A stretch of 64,000 bases of DNA from Escherichia coli (GTDB lineage: Bacteria; Pseudomonadota; Gammaproteobacteria; Enterobacterales; Enterobacteriaceae): the NCBI RefSeq assembly GCF_003334405.1, contig NZ_QOWM01000016.1; one strand, 5' to 3'. The notes under the pieces were generated by a model. It saw only the letters and a program-made list of their open reading frames with translations, made no database searches and was not told where the DNA came from. The position numbers were made by a program, and so were the translations under genes. Of the stretch, positions 6,196-46,156 are shown one piece after another; within the stretch, counting starts at the first letter, position 1, and each line of letters opens with the position of its first letter.

Positions 6196-6294
6196 GCCTG
6201 ATGCGCTTCGCTTATCAGGCCTACATGAATTCTGCAATTTATTGAATTTGCAAACTTTTGTAGGCCGGATAAGGCGTTCGCGCCGCATCCGGCA
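6196..6294. repeat. BIME (pair of inverted REP units)
   Basis: gcctgatgcgcttcgcttatcaggcctac ... gtaggccggataaggcgttcgcgccgcatccggca; the track ORF 6179..6376 is an artefact of this repeat. Confidence 0.85.
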
Positions 6295-25576: not shown

Positions 25577-25675
25577 GCCGGATGCGGCGTGAACGCCTTA
25601 TCCGGCCTACAAGTTCGTGCAAATTCAATAAATTGCAATATGACGTAGGCCTGATAAGCGTAGCGCATCAGGCGA
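25577..25675. repeat. BIME (two inverted REP units)
   Basis: tgccggatgcggcgtgaacgccttatccggcctac ... gtaggcctgataagcgtagcgcatcaggcg. Confidence 0.85.
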
Positions 25676-35556: not shown

Positions 35557-36660
35557 TTATTCCCACTCTTGCAGGAAACGCTGACCGTACTGGTCGGCTA
35601 CCAGCAGAGCGGCGTAAACCTGATCTGGCGTCGCGCCGCCAGGCATGTTGTGAATGGTTTCACCTTCTGCACATGCCGCTTCTGCCACAATTCGCATTTT
35701 CGCCGGGACATCTTCTTTAATATCCAGTTGAGCGAGAGTTATTGGCAAACCTACCGCATGGCTAAGGGCAGCTACGGTTTCGATTTCCTCCACCGGCGCA
35801 TTTTCCAGAACCAGCTGCGTCAGCGTACCGAATGCCACTTTTTCACCGTGATAATAGTGATGCGCGTCCGGGATAGCGGTCAGGCCGTTATGCACTGCGT
35901 GCGCCGCAGCCAGACCACCACTTTCAAAACCAACACTGCTCAAATAGGTGTTCGCTTCAATCACGCGCTCCAGCGCCGGAGTCACTACATGCTGTTCGGC
36001 AGCAAGCATCGCTTTTTCGCCTTCTTCCAGCAGGGTGTTGTAGCACAGTTCAGCCAGTGCCAGCGCAGCCTGGGTGCACTTGCCGCCCGCCATGGTGGTC
36101 GCGCCGCTACGAGAGCAGGCACGCGCTTCAAACCAGGTTGCCAGCGCATCGCCGATACCCGCCGCTAACAGACGTGCAGGTGCGCCAGCGACGATTTTGG
36201 TGTCGACAATGACCATATTCGGGTTATTTGGCAACAGCAGATAGCGGTCAAACTCACCCTCATCGGTGTAGATAACAGACAATGCGCTGCACGGTGCATC
36301 GGTAGAGGCGATAGTCGGTGCGATCGCTACCGGAACACCCATGAAATGTGCCAGTGCTTTGGCAGTATCGAGGGTTTTTCCGCCACCGATACCGAGAATT
36401 GCGCCACACTGCGCAGTCTCCGCGATGCCACGCAGACGGTCGATCTCATTTTGCGAACATTCACCGCCAAACGGCGCAATTTCTACTACCAGTCCAGCAT
36501 CTTTAAAGCTTTTCTCGACAGTGGATTGAGCAAAACCTAAAACAAATTTGTCACCCACCACTAACCAGCGTTCTGCCAGCGGCTTCAGGTATTCGCCCAG
36601 ACGATTAATCACATCAGCGCCCTGGATGTATTTACCCGGTGATTGAATAATGCGGTCCAT
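35557..36660 (-). CDS. gldA: glycerol dehydrogenase
   Basis: ORF 35557..36699; start at 36660 gives the 367-aa [25 protein letters not shown]... protein. Confidence 0.96.
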
Positions 36661-36670
36661 AATTGCTCCT

Positions 36671-37333
36671 TTAGAGATGAGTAGTGCCAAATGCGGCATT
36701 CCAGTCGTGTTCGAACTTCTCTATAGCTGACTCTACCGCAGGGGTGTTGAGCATTTGTTGCGCTACATCTAAGGGCAGGGTGATGGATTCACATCCTGCC
36801 AGTAAACAGTCCAGCGCCTGACGCGGCGTTTTAAAGCTGGCTGCCAGCACCATGCTTTCTGGCGCGTGCATTTCTAACAGCGTTTGCAGCTCCTGAACCG
36901 TACGAATGCCGTCTCCGCCCTGGGCATCTACGCGGTTAACATACGGAGCAACGTATTTTGCCCCTGCCAGTGCGGCTAATAACCCTTGTGCGGCGCTATA
37001 TACAGCAGTGCCAAGTGTAGTAATACCCTCTTTTTTCAGTATTTTAATTGCTGCCAGACCTTCGGAAGTCACCGGGATTTTCACCACAATACCCGGAATA
37101 GCGTCGCGCAGGCGCTTCGCTTCTTCCACCATCCCCTGCGCGTCGCGGCTCATGGTCTGAGCAAACAGAATGCCCTCATCACCAATCGCTTTTTGCAGAC
37201 GCGGCAGCACTTCCCATATGGACTCCTTGCTGGCAGCGATAATGCTCGGGTTAGTTGTCACCCCGGCAATGGGGAATATGCGTGCCAGACGTTCGACTTC
37301 TGCGACGTTAGCGGTGTCCAGATACAGTTCCAT
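36671..37333 (-). CDS. fsaB: fructose-6-phosphate aldolase 2
   Basis: ORF 220 aa [32 protein letters not shown]...; transaldolase-like. Confidence 0.95.
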
Positions 37334-37344
37334 GATGTTTCCTT

Positions 37345-39846
37345 TTACAGTTCCAGTTCATGTTGCAGCAGGCTGGCGATAGCGTCGGCAGAGGCGGCGT
37401 TAACCAGCGCGTTACGGAATTCTTCGTGCATGATGCGGCGAGCGAGGCGCGAGAAAATGCGCATATGCTGATCGCCCGCAGCGTGTTTGTTCAGGGTTAA
37501 CATAATGATGAATTGCGCTTCATCATCGCCCCAGCGCACCGGCGCTTGCAGACGCGCCACGCTGATGGTGGATTGCTCAATGTGTTCTGATTTGCTGTGT
37601 GGAATGGCAAAACTAAAGCCCAGACCGGTAGAGAAAACGGCCTCGCGCGCCCACAAGTCGGCTTCCAGTTTACGCGGATAGCGGCAGCGGCCCGCCAGCA
37701 GCAGGTTATCGGTCATGCCTTTGAGCACTTCTTCTTTGCTGCGCCAGTCGCTTTCCAGTGTGATGCACTCGGCGGTGACCAGCGGTGCGTCTTGTTGGGT
37801 CATGCGGAATTGCGCCAGCAGGTGTTCCACTTCCAGCGAAGTACGGCAGGCCATTGCCTGGTTGAGCAACTTGCGGCACTCACGGCTATCAAGTTGCGCC
37901 ATCCGAGCTTTCGCCGCCGGAATTGATGGTGCGCTCATGCTGAGTTCATCCAGCCCTAAGCCGACCAGCAACGGCAGCACGGAACCTTTCGCTCCCAGCT
38001 CACCGCACAGACCAATCCATTTGCCCTGGCGATGCACCGCTTGCACGGCGTAATCGAGCGCCCGCAAGAATGCCGGATTCAGGCTGTTGTAGTGACGAGT
38101 AACCTTAGCGTTATCGCGATCCACCGCCAGCAGATACTGCGTCAGGTCATTACTACCAATACTAAAGAAATCAATCTCTTCGCAGCATTGATCGATGATG
38201 AACATCACCGACGGCACTTCCAGCATGATGCCGAGCTGGATTTTCTCATCAAACGGAATGTGTTCGTTACGTAGTTGCTGTTTGGCTTCCGCCAGTTTTT
38301 CTTTCACCCATAAGATCTCTTCCATTGAGGAGATCATCGGGATCATGATTTTCAGGCTGCCGTGAGCGGAGGCGCGGAGGATCGACCGTAGCTGCGTGGT
38401 AAACAACGACGCGTACTCTTCATAAATACGCACGGCGCGATAACCGAGGAACGGGTTTGCCTCTGCGGGAATGTTCAGATAATCAACGGGTTTGTCGCCG
38501 CCAATGTCCATAGTGCGCACAATAATGCTGCGTCCGTTGGCGGATTCCAGCGCCTGACAAAAAATGTTGTACAACTCGCTTTCGCCCGGTGCGCTGGTGC
38601 GATCCATATAGAGCATTTCAGTGCGGAACAAACCAACGCCTTCCGCACCATTGCCGAATGCGGCCTGCGCTTCCACGGAGTGAGCGATGTTAGCGGCAAT
38701 TTCAATGCGGATACCGTCAGCGGTACGGGCTTGTTGGGTCAGCCAGACACGCTGTTGCTCACGCAGGGCGTCCTGTACGCGGGCTTCTTGCTGATAATAA
38801 CGAGCTACGGCTTCCCCTGGCTCAACCACAATCGCCCCGGCGTTGCCGTCGATATAAATCGTTTGTTGCTGCCACGGAGTAAGGGCATCAATATCCACAC
38901 CAACCAGCGTTGGAATGTTGAACGAACGGGCAAGGATCACCGTATGTGAGGTGGTGCCGCCGCTTTTGAGCAACAATCCTTTGAGGTGATTTTTATCCAG
39001 TTCGAGGAACTGGCTGGGGGTCAGTTCATCAGCCATACAAATGGCGGGCTGCGTCAGTTTGCCCGGTGCCGGGAAGCGTTGCTCACCGTAGATTTGCTGG
39101 AGTAACTGGAAGCAGACGTCGCGTACGTCCAGGGCACGTTCTTGCAGGTAGCTGCTGCTGGAACGGGAAAACTCTTCGCAAAAGTGATTCGCGCTGGCAA
39201 CAATTGCTTCGGCGCAGCTTAATCCGGCGCTGACGCCTGCCAGTAAATGTTCGCGCAGGGAAGTATCGCCAGCCAGGGATCGGTGAGCTTCCAGAATCGC
39301 GCTGGTAGCACCGTCGCTATCCAGCAGACGAAACTCAATGTTTTTCAGTACCAGCGTCAGGCCGTTTTCCAGTGCGGATTGCTCGGCGTCAACGCCTTTG
39401 GCTGCGGGAAGATTACCCAGCGCATTGAGATCTAAAGAAGAGATCGGCGTCAGAATGCCGCCTGCACTACCGCTGCACACGGTGCGGGCGCGGATAATTT
39501 GCGGATTCAGATTGGTCAGTGAAACCGGCAGTGGTTCCAGTTCGTCAGATTTAACTTCCGCCAGCGGCGCATCGCAGTGGGGGAATTCATCGCGCAGCCA
39601 TTGGCTTAAACGCTGGTGCGCTTCCTGTTCGTCGGCCCCGGAAATCAGTAACTGGCAGTTATCGCCCGCCAGCGTATCGGTGCCAATCAGCGCAAGGGCG
39701 CTTTTGGCGTTGCCCTTGCGGTCAGTGCGCAGGTTATGCCACTCAATTTGTGATGAAAAAGTATTACACAGCGTTTCAACGTGGCTTGCCGGACGCGCAT
39801 GTACGCCGTTAGGTAGCTCACAAATAAATTCCACAATCAGGGCCAT
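37345..39846 (-). CDS. ptsA: multiphosphoryl transfer protein (PTS EI-HPr-EIIA fusion) of the frw system
   Basis: ORF 833 aa [26 protein letters not shown]...; HPr-like N-terminus, EI PEP-utilising domain, fructose-type EIIA C-terminus. Confidence 0.93.
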
Positions 39847-40154
39847 TGCCTCTCTCCCGGTACGGTTTTCTGTTTACAGGATAAGAGCGCACGGCAACGG
39901 CCTGCCATGTGACAAATCTGCCAAAAGCTGGACAAATGTAATGTAACCGTCAATTTGCGACGCGTCTCACAAGACGCTGTTTTGCGGCATGCTTCCGGTT
40001 TATCGCAAGTTATGAGGCGGATCGCATTTTTGTACTGATATTACAAAAGTCCAGTAAATGGCCTTTTTATCCACTGTTTGCTCCGCCTGCGATTGCCTAT
40101 TGTTTCCTCCATCAAAAATATGGACATGGGCTTTCGCAAGCCCGGGAGCAGCTT

Positions 40155-41234
40155 ATGAATGAGTTGGTGCAGATCCTGAAAAATACCCGTCAGCATTTAA
40201 TGACGGGCGTTTCACACATGATTCCCTTCGTGGTATCGGGCGGTATTTTGCTGGCGGTTTCCGTCATGTTGTATGGCAAAGGCGCAGTGCCGGATGCCGT
40301 AGCCGATCCAAATCTGAAAAAACTGTTTGATATCGGCGTTGCGGGCTTGACGCTGATGGTGCCTTTCCTCGCAGCGTACATCGGTTATTCCATTGCAGAG
40401 CGTTCTGCGCTGGCTCCGTGCGCTATCGGTGCCTGGGTTGGTAACAGCTTTGGTGCGGGCTTCTTTGGTGCACTGATCGCCGGGATTATCGGCGGCATCG
40501 TGGTGCATTACCTGAAGAAAATTCCGGTGCATAAAGTTCTGCGCTCGGTGATGCCTATCTTCATTATTCCTATCGTCGGCACACTGATTACCGCAGGCAT
40601 CATGATGTGGGGCTTGGGCGAGCCTGTAGGGGCGTTGACCAACAGCCTGACTCAGTGGCTTCAGGGGATGCAGCAGGGCAGCATTGTTATGCTGGCGGTG
40701 ATCATGGGTCTGATGCTGGCGTTCGATATGGGCGGTCCGGTTAACAAAGTGGCCTATGCCTTCATGCTGATTTGCGTTGCTCAGGGTGTTTATACCGTGG
40801 TGGCCATCGCTGCCGTGGGTATTTGTATCCCGCCGCTGGGGATGGGGCTGGCGACGCTGATTGGTCGTAAAAATTTCTCCGCAGAAGAGCGCGAAACCGG
40901 CAAAGCGGCACTGGTGATGGGCTGTGTTGGCGTTACTGAAGGGGCGATTCCTTTCGCCGCTGCCGATCCGCTGCGTGTCATTCCTTCCATCATGGTCGGT
41001 TCAGTTTGTGGTGCAGTAACTGCGGCGCTGGTCGGTGCGCAGTGCTATGCAGGCTGGGGTGGTCTGATTGTGCTGCCGGTGGTTGAAGGCAAGCTGGGTT
41101 ATATCGCAGCAGTGGCTGTCGGAGCAGTGGTGACGGCTGTTTGTGTGAACGTGCTGAAAAGTCTGGCGCGTAAAAATGGGTCTTCGACTGATGAAAAAGA
41201 AGACGACCTGGATTTGGATTTTGAAATTAATTAA
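40155..41234 (+). CDS. frwC: fructose-like PTS EIIC component
   Basis: ORF 359 aa MNELVQILKNTRQHLMTGVSHMIPFVVSGG...; polytopic membrane protein. Confidence 0.93.
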   Translation: MNELVQILKNTRQHLMTGVSHMIPFVVSGGILLAVSVMLYGKGAVPDAVADPNLKKLFDIGVAGLTLMVPFLAAYIGYSIAERSALAPCAIGAWVGNSFGAGFFGALIAGIIGGIVVHYLKKIPVHKVLRSVMPIFIIPIVGTLITAGIMMWGLGEPVGALTNSLTQWLQGMQQGSIVMLAVIMGLMLAFDMGGPVNKVAYAFMLICVAQGVYTVVAIAAVGICIPPLGMGLATLIGRKNFSAEERETGKAALVMGCVGVTEGAIPFAAADPLRVIPSIMVGSVCGAVTAALVGAQCYAGWGGLIVLPVVEGKLGYIAAVAVGAVVTAVCVNVLKSLARKNGSSTDEKEDDLDLDFEIN

Positions 41235-41248
41235 TTGAGGAACGAGCC

Positions 41249-41569
41249 ATGACGAAAATTATTGCAGTAACCGCATGTCCTTCAGGTGTTGCCCATACCT
41301 ATATGGCAGCAGAGGCGCTGGAAAGTGCCGCGAAAGCGAAAGGCTGGGAAGTGAAAGTAGAAACCCAGGGGTCAATTGGTCTGGAAAATGAACTGACTGC
41401 GGAAGATGTGGCGAGCGCTGATATGGTGATTCTGACCAAAGATATCGGCATCAAGTTTGAAGAGCGTTTTGCTGGCAAGACCATCGTGCGCGTCAACATC
41501 AGCGATGCAGTAAAACGTGCTGACGCCATTATGAGCAAAATTGAAGCTCACCTGGCGCAAACCGCTTAA
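41249..41569 (+). CDS. frwB: fructose-like PTS EIIB component
   Basis: ORF 106 aa MTKIIAVTACPSGVAHTYMAAEALE... Confidence 0.93.
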   Translation: MTKIIAVTACPSGVAHTYMAAEALESAAKAKGWEVKVETQGSIGLENELTAEDVASADMVILTKDIGIKFEERFAGKTIVRVNISDAVKRADAIMSKIEAHLAQTA

Positions 41570-41619
41570 GTTCTTCTCCCGCTCGCAAGGGCGGGTTCGC
41601 TTTCCCACAGGAGTTCCTC

Positions 41620-43917
41620 ATGACGAATCGTATCTCTCGCCTCAAAACTGCACTGTTTGCCAATACCCGTGAAATCTCGCTGGAGCGGGCGCTGCTTTAT
41701 ACCGCCAGCCATCGGCAAACCGAAGGCGAACCGGTGATATTGCGCCGGGCGAAAGCAACAGCGTATATCCTTGAACATGTTGAAATTTCGATTCGTGATG
41801 AAGAACTGATTGCCGGTAACCGCACCGTAAAACCGCGCGCCGGGATTATGTCGCCGGAAATGGACCCTTACTGGCTGCTGAAAGAGCTGGATCAATTCCC
41901 GACGCGTCCGCAGGACCGCTTTGCTATCAGCGAAGAAGATAAACGTATCTACCGTGAAGAGTTGTTCCCGTACTGGGAAAAACGTTCGATGAAAGATTTC
42001 ATCAACGGGCAGATGACAGATGAAGTAAAAGCCGCGACCAACACGCAGATTTTCAGCATCAACCAGACGGATAAAGGCCAGGGGCACATTATTATTGATT
42101 ACCCACGCCTGTTGAATCACGGGCTGGGTGAGCTGGTGGCACAGATGCAGCAACATTGTCAGCAACAGCCGGAGAATCACTTTTATCAGGCCGCGTTGTT
42201 ACTGCTGGAAGCCTCGCAGAAACACATTTTGCGTTACGCCGAACTGGCGGAAACGATGGCGGCAAACTGCACAGATGCCCAGCGTCGCGAAGAGCTGCTG
42301 ACTATTGCAGAGATCTCCCGCCATAACGCGCAACATAAGCCGCAGACGTTCTGGCAGGCGTGCCAGTTATTCTGGTACATGAACATCATTCTGCAATACG
42401 AATCCAACGCCAGTTCGCTATCGTTGGGGCGCTTCGACCAGTATATGTTGCCGTTCTATCAGACATCATTAACCCAGGGCGAAGATGCGGCGTTCCTGAA
42501 AGAACTGCTCGAATCTTTATGGGTGAAATGCAACGACATCGTGCTGTTGCGCTCCACCAGTAGCGCGCGTTATTTCGCCGGTTTCCCGACCGGCTATACC
42601 GCACTGCTCGGCGGGTTAACCGAGAACGGACGTAGCGCGGTGAACGTGCTTTCGTTCCTTTGCCTTGACGCCTATCAAAGCGTGCAATTACCGCAACCGA
42701 ACCTCGGCGTGCGCACTAACGCCTTGATCGACACGCCGTTCCTGATGAAAACCGCCGAAACCATTCGCTTCGGCACCGGTATTCCGCAAATCTTTAACGA
42801 TGAAGTGGTGGTGCCAGCGTTCCTCAACCGTGGCGTTTCGCTGGAAGATGCGCGCGACTATTCCGTAGTGGGCTGTGTGGAATTATCTATTCCCGGCAGA
42901 ACCTACGGCTTGCATGACATCGCGATGTTTAATCTGCTGAAAGTGATGGAAATCTGCCTGCATGAAAATGAAGGCAATGCTGCGCTGACTTATGAAGGTT
43001 TACTGGAGCAGATCCGCGCCAAGATCAGCCACTACATCACCCTGATGGTTGAGGGCAGCAATATTTGTGATATCGGCCATCGCGACTGGGCACCTGTACC
43101 GCTGCTCTCATCGTTTATCAGCGATTGTCTGGAAAAAGGCCGCGATATTACCGATGGCGGCGCGCGTTATAACTTCTCCGGCGTACAGGGGATCGGTATC
43201 GCCAACCTGAGCGATTCTCTCCATGCGTTGAAAGGGATGGTTTTTGAGCAACAGCGTTTAAGTTTTGACGAATTGCTGTCGGTATTAAAAGCCAACTTCG
43301 CAACGCCAGAAGGCGAAAAAGTCCGCGCTCGCTTAATTAACCGCTTCGAGAAATACGGTAACGATATCGACGAGGTGGATAACATCAGCGCCGAACTGTT
43401 GCGCCACTACTGCAAAGAAGTGGAAAAATACCAGAACCCGCGCGGCGGCTACTTCACGCCGGGATCGTATACCGTTTCTGCTCACGTCCCGTTGGGATCG
43501 GTGGTTGGCGCGACGCCAGACGGTCGTTTTGCCGGAGAACAGCTGGCAGACGGCGGCTTGTCACCCATGCTGGGCCAGGACGCACAAGGGCCAACAGCGG
43601 TACTGAAGTCAGTCAGTAAGCTCGATAACACGCTGCTGTCTAACGGTACGTTGCTGAACGTGAAATTCACTCCGGCGACCCTGGAAGGTGAAGCAGGATT
43701 ACGCAAACTGGCCGACTTCTTACGGGCGTTTACCCAGCTTAAGTTACAACATATTCAGTTTAACGTGGTGAACGCCGACACGTTGCGGGAAGCGCAACAG
43801 CGCCCACAAGATTATGCCGGGCTGGTGGTGCGCGTTGCCGGATACAGCGCCTTCTTTGTCGAACTGTCGAAGGAGATCCAGGATGACATCATCCGCCGGA
43901 CAGCGCATCAGCTGTAA
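41620..43917 (+). CDS. pflD: pyruvate-formate-lyase-like glycyl radical enzyme
   Basis: ORF 765 aa MTNRISRLKTALFANTREISLERALLYTASH...; C-terminal glycyl-radical motif region (RVAGYSAFF). Confidence 0.93.
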   Translation: MTNRISRLKTALFANTREISLERALLYTASHRQTEGEPVILRRAKATAYILEHVEISIRDEELIAGNRTVKPRAGIMSPEMDPYWLLKELDQFPTRPQDRFAISEEDKRIYREELFPYWEKRSMKDFINGQMTDEVKAATNTQIFSINQTDKGQGHIIIDYPRLLNHGLGELVAQMQQHCQQQPENHFYQAALLLLEASQKHILRYAELAETMAANCTDAQRREELLTIAEISRHNAQHKPQTFWQACQLFWYMNIILQYESNASSLSLGRFDQYMLPFYQTSLTQGEDAAFLKELLESLWVKCNDIVLLRSTSSARYFAGFPTGYTALLGGLTENGRSAVNVLSFLCLDAYQSVQLPQPNLGVRTNALIDTPFLMKTAETIRFGTGIPQIFNDEVVVPAFLNRGVSLEDARDYSVVGCVELSIPGRTYGLHDIAMFNLLKVMEICLHENEGNAALTYEGLLEQIRAKISHYITLMVEGSNICDIGHRDWAPVPLLSSFISDCLEKGRDITDGGARYNFSGVQGIGIANLSDSLHALKGMVFEQQRLSFDELLSVLKANFATPEGEKVRARLINRFEKYGNDIDEVDNISAELLRHYCKEVEKYQNPRGGYFTPGSYTVSAHVPLGSVVGATPDGRFAGEQLADGGLSPMLGQDAQGPTAVLKSVSKLDNTLLSNGTLLNVKFTPATLEGEAGLRKLADFLRAFTQLKLQHIQFNVVNADTLREAQQRPQDYAGLVVRVAGYSAFFVELSKEIQDDIIRRTAHQL

Positions 43918-44761
43918 CGTTGTGGAAACGCGCCGCGATGATGTGGCGCGCATTTTCAACATTCAGCGTTATTCACTGAATGACGGCGAGGGCATTCGTA
44001 CGGTGGTCTTTTTTAAAGGCTGTCCGCATCTTTGCCCGTGGTGTGCTAATCCGGAGTCGATCTCCGGCAAAATCCAGACGGTACGCAGAGAGGCGAAATG
44101 TCTGCACTGTGCGAAATGTTTGCGTGATGCGGATGAATGCCCCTCCGGGGCGTTTGAACGGATTGGTCGCGATATCAGCCTTGACGCTCTGGAACGGGAA
44201 GTGATGAAAGATGACATTTTCTTTCGCACGTCCGGCGGCGGCGTCACGCTTTCTGGCGGCGAAGTGTTAATGCAGGCGGAGTTTGCTACCCGTTTTTTAC
44301 AGCGACTGCGGCTGTGGGGTGTGTCATGCGCCATTGAAACTGCCGGAGACGCACCAGCCAGCAAGCTATTACCGCTGGCGAAATTGTGCGATGAAGTGTT
44401 GTTCGATTTAAAAATTATGGACGCGACTCAGGCGCGGGATGTGGTGAAGATGAACCTGCCACGCGTGCTGGAGAATCTGCGTTTGCTGGTGAGTGAGGGC
44501 GTCAACGTGATCCCGCGTTTACCGCTGATCCCTGGTTTCACGCTCAGCCGGGAGAATATGCAGCAGGCGCTGGATGTACTGATCCCGCTGAATATCAGGC
44601 AGATCCATCTGTTACCGTTTCATCAGTACGGCGAACCGAAATACCGCCTGCTGGGGAAAACATGGTCGATGAAAGAGGTGCCTGCGCCGTCGTCAGCTGA
44701 TGTGGCAACGATGCGCGAAATGGCAGAACGGGCCGGACTTCAGGTTACCGTGGGAGGTTAA
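43883..44761 (+). CDS. pflC: glycyl-radical enzyme activating enzyme (radical SAM)
   Basis: ORF 43814..44761; ATG at 43883 after AAGGAG gives the 292-aa protein; CxxxCxxC radical-SAM motif (CPHLCPWC); overlaps the pflD 3' end by 35 nt. Confidence 0.92.
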   Translation: MTSSAGQRISCNVVETRRDDVARIFNIQRYSLNDGEGIRTVVFFKGCPHLCPWCANPESISGKIQTVRREAKCLHCAKCLRDADECPSGAFERIGRDISLDALEREVMKDDIFFRTSGGGVTLSGGEVLMQAEFATRFLQRLRLWGVSCAIETAGDAPASKLLPLAKLCDEVLFDLKIMDATQARDVVKMNLPRVLENLRLLVSEGVNVIPRLPLIPGFTLSRENMQQALDVLIPLNIRQIHLLPFHQYGEPKYRLLGKTWSMKEVPAPSSADVATMREMAERAGLQVTVGG

Positions 44762-44762
44762 A

Positions 44763-45104
44763 ATGGCATACCTGGTGGCAGTAACCGCCTGCGTAAGCGG
44801 CGTGGCGCATACTTATATGGCGGCGGAACGGCTGGAAAAGTTGTGCCTGTTAGAGAAGTGGGGAGTCAGCATTGAAACTCAGGGCGCGCTGGGAACGGAG
44901 AATCGTTTAGCGGATGAGGATATCCGCCGGGCGGATGTTGCTCTGTTGATTACGGATATCGAGCTTGCCGGTGCCGAGCGATTTGAACATTGCCGCTATG
45001 TGCAATGCAGCATCTACGCATTCCTGCGTGAGCCGCAGCGGGTAATGAGCGCGGTGCGCAAAGTGCTTTCTGCGCCGCAGCAAACCCATCTTATTCTGGA
45101 GTAG
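44763..45104 (+). CDS. frwD: fructose-like PTS EIIB' component
   Basis: ORF 44700..45104; ATG at 44763 gives the 113-aa MAYLVAVTACVSGVAHTYMAAERLE... protein (paralog of frwB). Confidence 0.9.
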   Translation: MAYLVAVTACVSGVAHTYMAAERLEKLCLLEKWGVSIETQGALGTENRLADEDIRRADVALLITDIELAGAERFEHCRYVQCSIYAFLREPQRVMSAVRKVLSAPQQTHLILE

Positions 45105-45942
45105 TCGGTTTTTCTGTCAGTTGGCTGTGGTACTGCCGGCGATATTCCGACGGCGAGCGTTCGGTGTTTTTACGAAACAGACGGCAGAAGTAGTTGCTGT
45201 CGACAAAGCCGCAGGCGTGCGCCACTTCTTTTACCTTCAGGTCATAGCCTTTCAATAACGTCTTAGCGTGCTCCAGTCGCGTGTGATTCAGGTATTCGTT
45301 AAAACCAATGGCCCCCGTTTTTTGAAACAGGTGCGAGAGGTAATTTGGCGAAATATAAAACGCCTGTGCAACAGATTCGCGGGTAAGCGCGGAGGCATAG
45401 CGTTCGTCGATATAATCGCGAATAGCTTCAAATAGTGCCTGGCTGCGTGAGGCGGTCTGGATTTGGCTGCCAAGCAAATCGCGGCAGTGGCTAAGCAGGC
45501 TGGCGACGATAAGCCTTGCCGTTTGCTGCTCCTGCGGCTGCATTTGCATTTCATTGAGCGTTTGTAGCAGAAAAGAACCTATGCGTGGGCCGCGTCGGGC
45601 GACGTGTTGCTTCGCCAGATTTTGATATTGTTTGCCATCCCATTGCACGACGCTGAAGCCGAGTTGCTGTTTGCCAAACAGCACGCTAAAGGTAGTAGCG
45701 GGGGCTTGCCATTGTGGAAAATTCCAGCCACCAGCAGGAACGTACAGCACATCGCCGGGAACTAACGTTGCTCCAGCGCCGGTATCAACAAACTCACCTT
45801 CCAGCACAATTTCCAGCCGTGGAAAATCGACCTGATACGCAAGATCGGGCACCGGGCCGTTACTGCTGGCAAAGTAAATCTGGCGCAGGGACAGCGGGCC
45901 GTTGATCAGGCGGGAGAGCAGATAGCTGACGTCGTGATACAT
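45091..45942 (-). CDS. yijO: AraC/XylS-family transcriptional regulator YijO
   Basis: ORF 283 aa; C-terminal AraC-type HTH; 3' end overlaps the frwD 3' end by 14 nt (convergent). Confidence 0.88.
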   Translation of the reverse strand: MYHDVSYLLSRLINGPLSLRQIYFASSNGPVPDLAYQVDFPRLEIVLEGEFVDTGAGATLVPGDVLYVPAGGWNFPQWQAPATTFSVLFGKQQLGFSVVQWDGKQYQNLAKQHVARRGPRIGSFLLQTLNEMQMQPQEQQTARLIVASLLSHCRDLLGSQIQTASRSQALFEAIRDYIDERYASALTRESVAQAFYISPNYLSHLFQKTGAIGFNEYLNHTRLEHAKTLLKGYDLKVKEVAHACGFVDSNYFCRLFRKNTERSPSEYRRQYHSQLTEKPTTPE

Positions 45943-45986
45943 GTTATTCCCTTAGGTATGTAGACGGGAAAACAGTAACTGGCATT

Positions 45987-46016
45987 ATTAAAAAAGGCCA
46001 CCTGAAAAGTGTGGCC
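45987..46016 (-). terminator. intrinsic terminator downstream of eptC
   Basis: Minus-strand ggccac/gtggcc stem followed by a U-run (plus-strand A-run 45989..45995). Confidence 0.7.
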
Positions 46017-46053
46017 TGAGGGGAGTTCGATGTAAACATTGCGGCAGTTGTAT

Positions 46054-46137
46054 TGCCGGATGTGGCGTAAACGCCTTATCCAGCCTACCGCCGCGATCTG
46101 TAGGCCGGATAAGACGCGTCAAGCGTCGCATCCGGCA
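46054..46137. repeat. BIME (two inverted REP units)
   Basis: tgccggatgtggcgtaaacgccttatccagcctac ... gtaggccggataagacgcgtcaagcgtcgcatccggca. Confidence 0.85.
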
Positions 46138-46156
46138 AATAGCGCCTGGCTGATAA

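Follow-up and report, generated by a model that had tools for sequence, protein, structure and literature searches.

Glycyl-radical enzymes in the catabolism of 1,5-anhydro-sugars

Escherichia coli encodes two paralogous glycyl-radical enzymes, PflD and YbiW, that have been linked to the breakdown of 1,5-anhydro-sugars. As summarized in PMC12441222, Ma et al. (JACS 2024;146:26187), a study likewise cited in PMC11987019, reported that PflD opens the ring of 1,5-anhydromannitol-6-phosphate (1,5-AM6P), and the summary further mentions phosphorylation by a PTS, dependence on a glycyl radical and growth of E. coli. The same summary states that YbiW cleaves 1,5-anhydroglucitol-6-phosphate (1,5-AG6P) and PflD cleaves 1,5-AM6P, both reactions yielding 1-deoxyfructose-6-phosphate. 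Consistent with this assignment, PDB entries 8yjo, 8yjn and 8id7 were deposited as "Probable dehydratase PflD/YbiW", and the PDB sequence search listing gives no ligands for these structures. Regarding the neighboring genes, PMC6643234 describes fsaB and gldA as anaerobic genes and reports that hydroxyacetone induces gldA. In Salmonella, ptsA, frwBC and talC, which belong to both divergent operons, are co-induced, and pflC and pflD, whose promoters are induced in vivo, came out of an IVET screen in pigs. As late as 2022, the adjacent AraC-type regulator YijO was catalogued among the transcription factors without a known function.

The locus analysed here lies in a window of 64,000 nucleotides of E. 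coli DNA and corresponds to this reported pathway, by which 1,5-anhydro-sugars of dietary or host origin are converted into glyceraldehyde-3-phosphate and 1,2-propanediol. The name "formate C-acetyltransferase" persists for PflD in thousands of database entries as well as in RefSeq and NCBIfam NF007437, and this outdated annotation explains why readers relying on annotation or on older knowledge keep flagging the locus as unknown. The sequence-only reading, which described a cryptic frw PTS wired to an enzyme pair of unknown substrate, was out of date with regard to the substrate, since Ma et al. 2024, as cited in PMC12441222 and PMC11987019, reportedly assign 1,5-anhydromannitol-6-phosphate, and entry 8yjo is available. 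It rightly added that the system was not new, and its finding is real but already explained, because the 2024 work showed the ring-opening chemistry of PflD. What our analysis contributes as a new lead is only the predicted regulator, YijO, together with its predicted binding sites.

Genetic organization of the locus

The region is the gldA-fsaB-ptsA / frwCB-pflDC-frwD locus of E. coli K-12, from which it differs by 3 of 10,386 nucleotides (MG1655) and a single amino-acid change, G242S in GldA. Its features are as follows.

35557-36660, minus strand: gldA, intact ORF; NAD-dependent glycerol / L-1,2-propanediol dehydrogenase
36671-37333, minus strand: fsaB, intact ORF; fructose-6-phosphate aldolase (Fsa/TalC, class I)
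37345-39846, minus strand: ptsA (frwA), intact ORF; HPr - Enzyme I - EIIA (Fru-type) fusion, multiphosphoryl transfer protein
39847-40154, unstranded: ptsA-frwC divergent control region, 308 bp, mirror-symmetric architecture
40155-41234, plus strand: frwC, intact ORF; PTS EIIC permease (Fru family)
41249-41569, plus strand: frwB, intact ORF; PTS EIIB (Cys10)
41578-41595, plus strand: GC-rich hairpin in the frwB-pflD spacer, from a terminator-like scan
41620-43917, plus strand: pflD, intact ORF; glycyl-radical dehydratase with reported ring-opening of 1,5-AM6P, not pyruvate formate-lyase
43883-44761, plus strand: pflC, intact ORF; radical-SAM activase of PflD
44763-45104, plus strand: frwD, intact ORF; second PTS EIIB (Cys10)
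45091-45942, minus strand: yijO, AraC/XylS-family regulator; predicted dedicated activator of both operons

The gene content and strands given by the sequence-only reading were correct, all eight genes from gldA to frwD being intact ORFs, and the pflD/pflC pair does lie between the two EIIB genes, frwB and frwD. Equally accurate were the junctions that it listed, with an overlap of 35 nt between pflD and pflC, where AAGGAG stands 7 nt upstream of the pflC ATG, and a gap of 1 nt between the pflC stop and the frwD ATG, with GGAGG immediately upstream. Judged on these junction sequences, the tight translational coupling of pflD, pflC and frwD that had been suggested is plausible. On the other strand, the intergenic gaps are 11 nt (ptsA-fsaB) and 10 nt (fsaB-gldA), and yijO overlaps the 3' end of frwD by 14 nt. 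A hairpin occurs at the same place in the frwB-pflD spacer in most genera, with non-homologous sequences, and Rfam searches found no RNA family within the locus.

Transport and catabolic proteins

The PTS is complete, as had been claimed. Pfam domains of PtsA comprise PTS-HPr (residues 7-84), PEP-utilisers_N (123-237), the mobile domain (266-337), the PEP-binding domain (363-653) and PTS_EIIA_2 (690-829), with His16, His301 and His750 present, which gives the HPr, EI and EIIA moieties. FrwC supplies EIIC (NF007787, 720.4 against 426; TIGR01427, 300.3 against 157.55), and both FrwB (NF007783, 210.4 against 135) and FrwD (NF007747, 224.1 against 153) are EIIB proteins carrying Cys10, with respective TIGR00829 scores of 137.7 and 85.7 against 76.85. 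All the components of a Fru-family phosphorelay (HPr, EI, EIIA, EIIB and EIIC) are thus encoded, with phosphorylatable His and Cys residues; the Fru family name of the frw PTS reflects homology only.

PflD is 100% identical to its MG1655 counterpart, and its residues 1-765 align with PDB 8yjo ("Probable dehydratase PflD") at 1741 bits; by this identity it would be the 1,5-anhydrohexitol-6-phosphate ring-opening dehydratase reported by Ma et al. 2024. It belongs to the glycyl radical enzyme superfamily (TIGR01774, 1356 against a cut-off of 678), with the RVxG and Cys loops; PF02901 and PF01228 are recorded on cluster representatives 99% identical to it. Cys419, Glu421 and Gly741 are present, the latter in the glycine loop RVAGYS, and Cys419 and Glu421 form the C-x-E pair of the glycyl-radical 1,2-eliminase / dehydratase class. 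The GC(V/I)E motif is common to PflD and YbiW, which share 38% identity, and is retained in the Vibrio and Gilliamella orthologues, whereas PflB has CC. PflC is a radical-SAM activase (NF007483, 627 against 326; TIGR02494, 262.1 against 174.35), with the CX3CX2C motif at C47, C51 and C54 and further cysteines at positions 73, 76, 79 and 86.

The aldolase FsaB (TIGR00875, 354.6 against 245.95) has its Schiff-base Lys85, and GldA scores 749.6 with the equivalog model NF047954 (cut-off 700). None of the eight proteins lacks any of its catalytic residues. FsaB reportedly splits the PflD product, and GldA is said to reduce the resulting hydroxyacetone to 1,2-propanediol. In this scheme, fsaB and gldA would be downstream steps of the pathway, where the earlier reading had them as neighbors only.

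Proposed pathway

Taken together, the locus very probably serves the anaerobic catabolism of a 1,5-anhydrohexitol, reportedly 1,5-anhydro-D-mannitol, under what we infer to be regulation by YijO and CRP. PEP would phosphorylate PtsA, from which the phosphate would pass to EIIB (FrwB, possibly FrwD), and FrwC would import the sugar as its 6-phosphate, a role that we infer for this particular PTS. PflC would install the glycyl radical on Gly741 of PflD, whose Cys419 and Glu421 would carry out a radical ring-opening C-O cleavage, formally a dehydration, giving 1-deoxy-fructose-6-phosphate; this ring-opening step was reported experimentally by Ma et al. 2024, according to the summary in PMC12441222. 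Through Lys85, FsaB would then convert 1-deoxy-fructose-6-phosphate into glyceraldehyde-3-phosphate, which enters glycolysis, and hydroxyacetone. In the last step, GldA would use NADH to turn hydroxyacetone into 1,2-propanediol, thereby balancing redox. In front of each divergent promoter, YijO is predicted to act on a 38-bp element (from about -34 to -71), and a CRP-family site would lie at about -92 on each side, an arrangement that would switch on both operons jointly if the sugar is available and glucose is not.

Conservation and genetic linkage

The locus is present in all 5426 complete E. coli genomes surveyed and intact in 5394 of them, and it is under strong purifying selection, with dN/dS values of 0.02-0.14 in all nine genes (frwB ca. 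0.02). Among 65 PflD loci, synteny was observed for pflC (63), ptsA, frwB and frwD (60 each), frwC (59), fsaB-like (56) and gldA-like genes (36), while the flanking eptC (18/65) and yijF (3/65) are unlinked to PflD loci. About 60 of the 65 loci, from four families and with 14 gene orders, have ptsA, frwC and frwB still linked to pflD and pflC, and in Enterobacterales, Orbaceae, Pasteurellaceae and Vibrio alike the PTS genes are accompanied by those of the enzyme pair and of the aldolase. The proposed connection between the PTS and the enzyme pair therefore holds, being backed by synteny over four families and by the Salmonella co-induction across the divergent operons. The Fsa-type genes include independently placed copies in Gilliamella and Vibrio. 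In Vibrio clusters, Fsa (40% identical) and GldA (53% identical) were recruited at different positions, and additional genes encode a Gfo/Idh/MocA oxidoreductase, a GutQ-like isomerase, an RmlD-like reductase, a sugar phosphatase and ManA. Five PflD loci, four of the Kluyvera type and that of Edwardsiella piscicida, are devoid of the PTS, which is thus not obligatory; in Kluyvera, the stretch from pflC to the yijO-like gene holds small ORFs with no family match. The homologous-protein search covered close relatives (at least 89% identity), which places distant clusters, such as those of Gram-positive bacteria, outside its view. An extra glycyl-radical enzyme found beside gldA in Phytobacter, Pluralibacter and a Citrobacter was tested as a YbiW orthologue and proved not to be one.

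YijO and the ptsA-frwC control region

A yijO homologue occurs in 65/65 PflD loci having at least 20 kb of sequence. YijO carries HTH_18 at residues 192-270, and its AlphaFold model (pLDDT 85.9) places beta strands within residues 22-115, helices within 121-158 and the HTH region within 166-275, corresponding to the N-terminal beta-rich domain, helical linker and double HTH of the AraC/XylS family. The C-terminal domain of this model can be superposed on the DNA-binding domains of AraC-family proteins with TM 0.8-0.9, and full-length fold matches (CsvR, Rns, ToxT) point to a generic AraC-family protein only; for the N-terminal domain, searches returned neither a Pfam family nor a solved structure of similar sequence.

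The footprint of the ptsA-frwC spacer was drawn from an alignment over 14 genera, and the following elements were delineated.

39878-39883, minus strand: putative ptsA -10 hexamer TATCCT; conserved columns A32, G33, T36 and A37
39905-39942, minus strand: ptsA-side 38-bp element ATTACATTTGTCCAGCTTTTGGCAGATTTGTCACATGG, PWM 52.1; predicted YijO (AraC-type) activator site
39956-39971, unstranded: CRP-type palindrome 1 TGCGACGCGTCTCACA; 9/10 matches to TGTGA-N6-TCACA
40011-40026, unstranded: CRP/FNR-type palindrome 2 TATGAGGCGGATCGCA; 8/10 matches to the CRP consensus
40040-40077, plus strand: frwC-side 38-bp element ATTACAAAAGTCCAGTAAATGGCCTTTTTATCCACTGT, PWM 55.1; predicted YijO site
40098-40103, plus strand: putative frwC -10 hexamer TATTGT; T252, A253 and T257 invariant and T255 at least 90% conserved (14 genera)

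Nearly all of the 69 spacers compared have the same geometry, namely a 38-bp element, 13 bp, a 16-bp palindrome, about 39 bp of variable length, and then the mirror order. In 68 of these spacers, 13 bp separate palindrome 1 (consensus TG.Ga.....cTCACA) from the ptsA-side element, and in about 65 the same distance lies between the end of palindrome 2 (consensus TttGAg.cggaTCgCA) and the frwC-side element. With its FNR-like TTGA left half in most genera, palindrome 2 is ambiguous and may be of the CRP or of the FNR type. The PWMs of the two 38-bp elements correlate at 0.52, in register, and apart from these two elements the 64-kb window has no PWM match, with a runner-up score of -9.0. Across 1.65 Mb of loci, the 154 motif matches scoring at least 10 are all inside the pflD cluster. 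In Kluyvera and Edwardsiella piscicida the motif immediately precedes pflD, and it also occurs in Vibrio spacers; none of these sequences belonged to the training set, and the matches upstream of pflD in PTS-less genomes occur where a yijO-like gene is retained. Taken alone, the mirror repeat of the E. coli spacer (23/38 matches) is not significant, since this value equals the best of 300 shuffles (maxima: mean 19.7, sd 1.2, highest 23), and it becomes convincing only through the PWMs of the orthologues. Within the 38-bp element, a 20-bp repeat compatible with tandem AraC-type half-sites is tentative, the self-similarity peak at a 20-bp offset (0.36) being not clearly above other offsets. No promoter emerged from a simple sigma-70 scan of the spacer, which is expected of activator-dependent promoters and is evidence neither way.

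The occurrence of yijO in all 65 loci, along with mirrored elements and CRP-type sites, leads us to predict YijO as the activator of the pathway. Its more specific role as a dedicated, anhydro-sugar-responsive activator working through two mirror 38-bp operators, each with a CRP-family site 13 bp upstream, is a prediction to which we give an even chance of being right; under this reading, the 308-bp spacer may be a symmetric bidirectional switch of the araBAD kind. This model of YijO and mirrored operators was not found in the searchable literature. More speculatively, FrwD might be a regulatory partner of YijO instead of a transport component, because frwD stays beside yijO through several rearrangements (56/60 loci, several gene orders). 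The predicted operators and CRP sites might also offer a biosensor for 1,5-anhydro-sugars, which are clinical markers.

Alternative interpretations

Despite its name in RefSeq and NCBIfam NF007437 and its membership of the same glycyl-radical superfamily, it is extremely unlikely that PflD forms with PflC a second, redundant system for pyruvate (or 2-ketoacid) formate-lyase, an outcome that the sequence-only reading had said would undo its proposal. PflD has a single cysteine followed by glutamate (GCVE) and lacks the Cys-Cys pair of PflB, to which it is only 25% identical; its score with the PFL (EC 2.3.1.54) model TIGR01255 is 121.9 against a cut-off of 994.2; and its nearest solved structures are dehydratases and lyases, PFL itself giving 117 bits. 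These features contradict a mere redundancy, in line with the dehydratase label chosen by the PDB depositors and with the sugar-phosphate substrate reported for Ma et al. in the summary of PMC12441222. It is scarcely more credible that the locus is cryptic, in the sense of being transcriptionally silent and decaying. The historical lack of a phenotype and the low aerobic expression noted in PMC6643234 could be read in this way, but the low dN/dS values and intactness given above, the deeply conserved promoter architecture, the documented Salmonella expression, including induction in vivo, and the growth on the substrate reported in the summary of PMC12441222 do not support the epithet "cryptic" and contradict this reading.

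The frw PTS might instead transport fructose or another ordinary hexose, the enzyme pair having landed in its operon with no functional link, as could be suggested by the Fru-type family models and by PMC6643234, which places PtsA in a putative PTS for anaerobic fructose catabolism. This is very unlikely given the linkage of ptsA, frwC and frwB to pflD and pflC in about 60 of 65 loci, the same element preceding both operons, as well as pflD alone where the PTS is missing, and the co-induction in Salmonella of genes from both divergent operons. An unlikely, though not far-fetched, possibility is that the chemistry is right and the physiological substrate is another or a broader one, such as 1,5-anhydroglucitol, derivatives of 1,5-anhydrofructose, or phosphates of other deoxy or anhydro sugars. 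The extra genes of the Vibrio clusters suggest upstream or alternative feed-ins such as 1,5-anhydrofructose, and the identity of the substrate comes second-hand through the summary in PMC12441222, which also terms 1,5-anhydromannitol non-physiological in humans. However, that summary is explicit about the pairs YbiW-AG6P and PflD-AM6P. Moreover, manA beside the Vibrio cluster fits a manno-configured substrate. Substrate complexes were also reportedly crystallized in the 2024 work.

Comparison with known systems

The "anhydroglycolysis" pathway described for K-12 PflD/PflC by Ma et al. 2024 is this very locus, with the same enzyme, activase, aldolase and dehydrogenase, and proteins identical save for the GldA substitution. 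A related system is the paralogous ybiW-ybiY / fsaA locus of the 1,5-anhydroglucitol-6-phosphate pathway, which likewise combines a GCxE dehydratase, an activase and a divergent Fsa, with a product reported in the summary of PMC12441222 to be also 1-deoxy-fructose-6-phosphate. Unlike the pflD locus, it has no dedicated PTS, gldA or yijO-type regulator, the 38-bp element is absent (best score -9.1), and a sugar phosphatase gene (ybiV) and a DUF1479 gene (ybiU) are found instead. At the level of the enzyme, PflD shares its fold, TIGR01774, Cys-x-Glu and RVxG with the B12-independent glycerol dehydratase (1r8w), CutC, HypD and propanediol dehydratase (5i2a), and differs from these 1,2-eliminases by its reported cyclic sugar phosphate substrate, in which a pyranose-type ether ring is opened; no equivalog model of the other glycyl-radical eliminases reaches its cut-off on PflD. 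PflB/PflA resemble PflD/PflC as a member of the glycyl-radical superfamily with a radical-SAM activase, yet PflB is linked to focA and PflD to a PTS, and Cys418-Cys419 of PflB contrasts with Gly-Cys-Val-Glu in PflD.

For the predicted control region, a parallel is found in the araBAD and rhaBAD promoters, where an AraC-family activator overlaps the -35 region and CRP is centered near -92/-93. The ptsA-frwC spacer would fit this geometry if the putative TATTGT and TATCCT hexamers are the -10 boxes: about 20 bp separate the end of the bipartite 38-bp element from a conserved -10-like hexamer, and the CRP-type palindrome lies 13 bp further upstream, with its center estimated at about -92. In contrast to araBAD and rhaBAD, the module is duplicated in mirror image to serve two divergent operons, with YijO as the presumed activator.

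Gene content of the locus

The locus comprises two divergent gene groups, gldA-fsaB-ptsA and frwC-frwB-pflD-pflC-frwD, separated by a 308-bp spacer. This gene content, described in the sequence-only reading, was borne out by the ORF list, the RefSeq annotation of an identical genome, and the inspection of every junction. The tight packing it had described was likewise found at the junctions, with pflC starting 35 nt within pflD behind an AAGGAG motif, and a single nucleotide between the pflC stop and the frwD start, which is preceded by GGAGG. Gaps among gldA, fsaB, and ptsA are 10-11 nt.

Genes of the locus (window coordinates; ORF list and RefSeq annotation)
35557-36660, minus strand, gldA
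36671-37333, minus strand, fsaB
37345-39846, minus strand, ptsA
40155-41234, plus strand, frwC
41249-41569, plus strand, frwB
41620-43917, plus strand, pflD
43883-44761, plus strand, pflC
44763-45104, plus strand, frwD

From gldA to yijO, 3 of 10,386 nt differ from MG1655, and GldA G242S (Ser242 here, Gly in MG1655) is the sole amino-acid difference from K-12 across the locus. The locus was found in all complete E. coli genomes (5426/5426), with a coverage of at least 80% in 5394. A rare natural deletion occurs in E. coli T28R (NZ_CP142708.1, genome match H22), where the query is reduced to its first 600 nt; this remnant comprises the spacer and the 5' part of frwC, and adjoins the AraC-family gene.

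Protein identities

All products of the locus scored above the cut-off of their own E. coli equivalog model. PtsA is a five-domain HPr-EI-EIIA fusion (Pfam) with His16, His301, and His750 present, the EIIB Cys10 is kept in both FrwB and FrwD, FsaB retains Lys85, and PflC displays the cysteine motif C47-x3-C51-x2-C54. PflD has a glycine loop RVAG(741)YS and a cysteine loop G-C419-V-E421, the equivalent site being G-C-I-E in its E. coli paralogue YbiW and C-C in PflB, the true pyruvate formate-lyase (PFL). Its identity is 25% to PflB and 38% to YbiW, and its score with the PFL equivalog TIGR01255 is 122 bits against a cut-off of 994. The best PDB match, at full length, was 8yjo ("Probable dehydratase PflD"), followed by a homologue (8id0) and B12-independent glycerol dehydratase; PFL reached only 117 bits. 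Together, the residues, identities, TIGR01255 score, and PDB ranking show that PflD is a glycyl-radical eliminase, and a formate acetyltransferase is ruled out by the GCVE loop, the low PflB identity, and the sub-threshold TIGR01255 score.

RefSeq and NCBIfam NF007437 still name PflD "formate C-acetyltransferase", and PflC is a "[formate-C-acetyltransferase]-activating enzyme" in RefSeq; these stale names recur in all named cluster representatives. PDB depositors already use "dehydratase" for PflD, and the public annotation is stale in this respect.

Reported substrate and pathway

The review PMC12441222 summarises the study of Ma et al. 2024, in which the anaerobic routes for 1,5-anhydroglucitol and 1,5-anhydromannitol begin with phosphorylation by a phosphotransferase system (PTS) to the 6-phosphate. 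By a glycyl-radical mechanism, YbiW then cleaves 1,5-anhydroglucitol-6-phosphate and PflD 1,5-anhydromannitol-6-phosphate, yielding 1-deoxyfructose-6-phosphate, and these pathways enable the growth of E. coli and many gut bacteria on both anhydro compounds (PMC12441222). The same study is cited for YbiW and PflD function in PMC11987019. The published assignments therefore render outdated the earlier statement that the substrates were not established. In the same work, FsaA or FsaB is said to split the product into glyceraldehyde-3-phosphate and hydroxyacetone, the latter reportedly being reduced by GldA to 1,2-propanediol. The grouping of gldA and fsaB in one operon with ptsA would follow, since FsaB and GldA would catalyse the downstream steps. 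In older work, gldA was induced by hydroxyacetone, and the behaviour of both fsaB and gldA was that of anaerobic genes (PMC6643234), which fits this order of reactions.

Conservation and variant loci

Scanning one genome per species revealed 80 PflD loci (74-99% identity) in Enterobacterales, Orbaceae (Gilliamella, Zophobihabitans), Pasteurellaceae (Necropsobacter), and Vibrio. When E. coli proteins were mapped onto the 65 loci for which 20 kb or more was available, a yijO homologue was present in 65/65, pflC in 63/65, ptsA, frwB, and frwD in 60/65 each, frwC in 59/65, an fsaB-type aldolase in 56/65, and a gldA-type dehydrogenase in 36/65; the flanking genes eptC and yijF occurred in 18/65 and 3/65. 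Fourteen gene orders were found among the PflD loci. The aldolase gene is placed after pflC in Gilliamella, and Vibrio has recruited Fsa (40% identical) and GldA (53% identical) at other positions.

A promoter trap run in vivo, with Salmonella in pigs, picked up pflC and pflD, which that paper terms Fnr-regulated; in egg white, Salmonella ptsA, frwBC, and talC were induced together. This expression, the conserved linkage, and the low dN/dS of all nine genes (0.02-0.14 against E. albertii, Citrobacter, and Enterobacter) contradict the label "cryptic" previously attached to the locus. Far from being cryptic or a chance assembly, the locus is a real, conserved, and functional system, known since 2024.

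Several genera harbour variants. Only pflD, pflC, and a yijO-like gene are kept in Kluyvera-type loci (L032, L033, L041, L050) and in Edwardsiella piscicida (L077), with no PTS, aldolase, or gldA near pflD; the Kluyvera neighbours are hyp/fhlA genes. A third glycyl-radical enzyme, accompanied by a DeoR-family regulator, is encoded right next to gldA in Phytobacter, Pluralibacter, and one Citrobacter (locus L025, 385-3739; also L016 and L074). This protein (820 aa, PFL2-3 subfamily) shares 35% identity with PflD and reached no equivalog cut-off; it was tested as a YbiW orthologue and proved not to be one. The Vibrio harveyi cluster (L080, 2790-5401 and 13126-19512) includes extra genes for a Gfo/Idh/MocA oxidoreductase, a GutQ-like sugar-phosphate isomerase, a GlcG-like protein, an RmlD-like reductase, a HAD sugar phosphatase, and a mannose-6-phosphate isomerase. 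The oxidoreductase belongs to the same family as the rhizobial 1,5-anhydrofructose reductase, and the set suggests additional feed-in steps.

FrwD and the intra-operon hairpin

The AraC/XylS-family gene yijO is convergent with frwD, overlapping it by 14 nt (45091-45104). The two genes adjoin in 56/60 loci, in convergent and divergent arrangements alike, and even where both have moved to the other side of ptsA (examples: window 44763-45942; loci L064, L066, L068-L073, L078-L081). Because this adjacency survives rearrangements, it hints at a functional coupling of the EIIB protein FrwD with YijO. FrwD evolves faster than FrwB, and could serve either in transport, as a second EIIB, or in regulation, as a partner of YijO. 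The frwD/yijO pair is among the convergent "excludons" detected from RNA-seq (PMC12288877), so transcribing the frw operon could hamper expression of its own putative regulator.

A GC-rich hairpin (41578-41595, CCCGCTCGCAAGGGCGGG) occupies the frwB-pflD spacer (41570-41619). Most other genera have a hairpin at this position, between the PTS genes and pflD, with non-homologous sequences. In Citrobacter and Edwardsiella these are REP-like palindromes, whereas Gilliamella has AT-rich stems and Vibrio a pair of stems. None was found there in Rahnella and Buttiauxella. It may act as an intra-operon attenuator or mRNA stabiliser. The yijO-eptC spacer (45943-46156) is reported to hold a BIME/REP element with attenuator-like features (PMC2965389). 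Rfam searches detected no RNA family within the locus. Elsewhere in the window, they identified elements at 55910-56019, 61009-61198, 1135-1212, 19910-19967, 24579-24631, 6217-6258, and 25611-25652, listed as OxyS, the btuB cobalamin riboswitch, naRNA4, the ClpQY promoter element, the L31 leader, and two ES036, as expected of K-12.

Control region and predicted YijO sites

The length of the ptsA-frwC spacer is kept at 301-321 bp in most Enterobacteriaceae, and an alignment of 14 genera revealed long invariant blocks.

Features of the ptsA-frwC spacer (window coordinates)
39878-39883, minus strand, putative -10-like hexamer TATCCT, conserved
39905-39942, minus strand, 38-bp block near ptsA, ATTACATTTGTCCAGCTTTTGGCAGATTTGTCACATGG
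39956-39971, palindrome 1, CRP match 9/10, TGCGACGCGTCTCACA
40011-40026, palindrome 2, CRP match 8/10, TATGAGGCGGATCGCA
40040-40077, plus strand, 38-bp block near frwC, ATTACAAAAGTCCAGTAAATGGCCTTTTTATCCACTGT
40098-40103, plus strand, putative -10-like hexamer TATTGT, conserved

Within the E. coli spacer alone, the mirror match of the two 38-bp blocks is 23/38, which is not significant. Position matrices computed separately for the two sides across 69 orthologous spacers give a correlation of 0.52 in register and of -0.14 to 0.10 at every other shift; on this comparison, the blocks are one element in mirror orientation, with an invariant TCCAG. Between the elements sit the two 16-bp CRP/FNR-type palindromes, the left half of palindrome 2 being FNR-like (TTGA) in most genera. 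The palindrome-to-element distance is 13 bp for palindrome 1 in 68/69 spacers and for palindrome 2 in about 65/69, and each element is followed, 20-21 bp on, by its conserved hexamer. If the hexamers are -10 boxes, the elements would span about -34 to -71, with palindromes centred near -92; transcription is predicted to start near 39871 (minus strand) and 40110 (plus strand).

The two spacer sites are the sole occurrences of the element within the 64-kb window (scores 55 and 52), the next best score being -9 and the background mean -82. Over 1.65 Mb of fetched loci, all motif matches scoring at least 10 (154/154) fall inside this cluster, 18 of them outside the spacers used for training. Six of these 18 sit immediately ahead of pflD, in Kluyvera-type loci and E. 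piscicida, whose genomes have no PTS but retain a yijO-like gene. Another eight make up mirrored pairs in the four Vibrio spacers. Of the remaining four, one is placed between yijO and the gldA-like gene in a Vibrio locus (L078), one is upstream of frwD in a Necropsobacter, and two are in Yersinia, ahead of a small, weakly 2OG-oxygenase-like gene preceding yijO. No site was found at the ybiW/fsaA locus. YijO, in 2022 still a transcription factor of unknown function (PMC9308461), was modelled (pLDDT 85.9) with an N-terminal beta-rich domain that matched no Pfam family, a helical linker, and a double helix-turn-helix. Based on the co-occurrence of regulator and motif across rearrangements, which is good though indirect evidence, we put at about even the chance that the 38-bp elements are YijO operators.

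The Yersinia gene (L044, 14498-15368; L046, near 15353-15390) has the same orientation as yijO, which it directly precedes, and encodes a 255-aa protein weakly similar to 2OG-Fe(II) oxygenases. The presence of manA next to the Vibrio cluster and of ybiU (DUF1479) next to ybiW may be connected with it. From these neighbours one may speculate on an aerobic counterpart, in which anhydromannitol would be converted to mannose by oxygen-dependent C1-hydroxylation.

The control-region architecture is newly proposed here, and the predicted YijO switch adds a modest, testable point to an already known system. The paralogous ybiW-ybiY/fsaA locus follows the same logic of enzyme, activase, and aldolase as the pflD locus. 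The araBAD and rhaBAD promoters have the same arrangement of regulator element and palindrome as that predicted here; with the putative -10 boxes, this layout would be duplicated back to back in the ptsA-frwC spacer.
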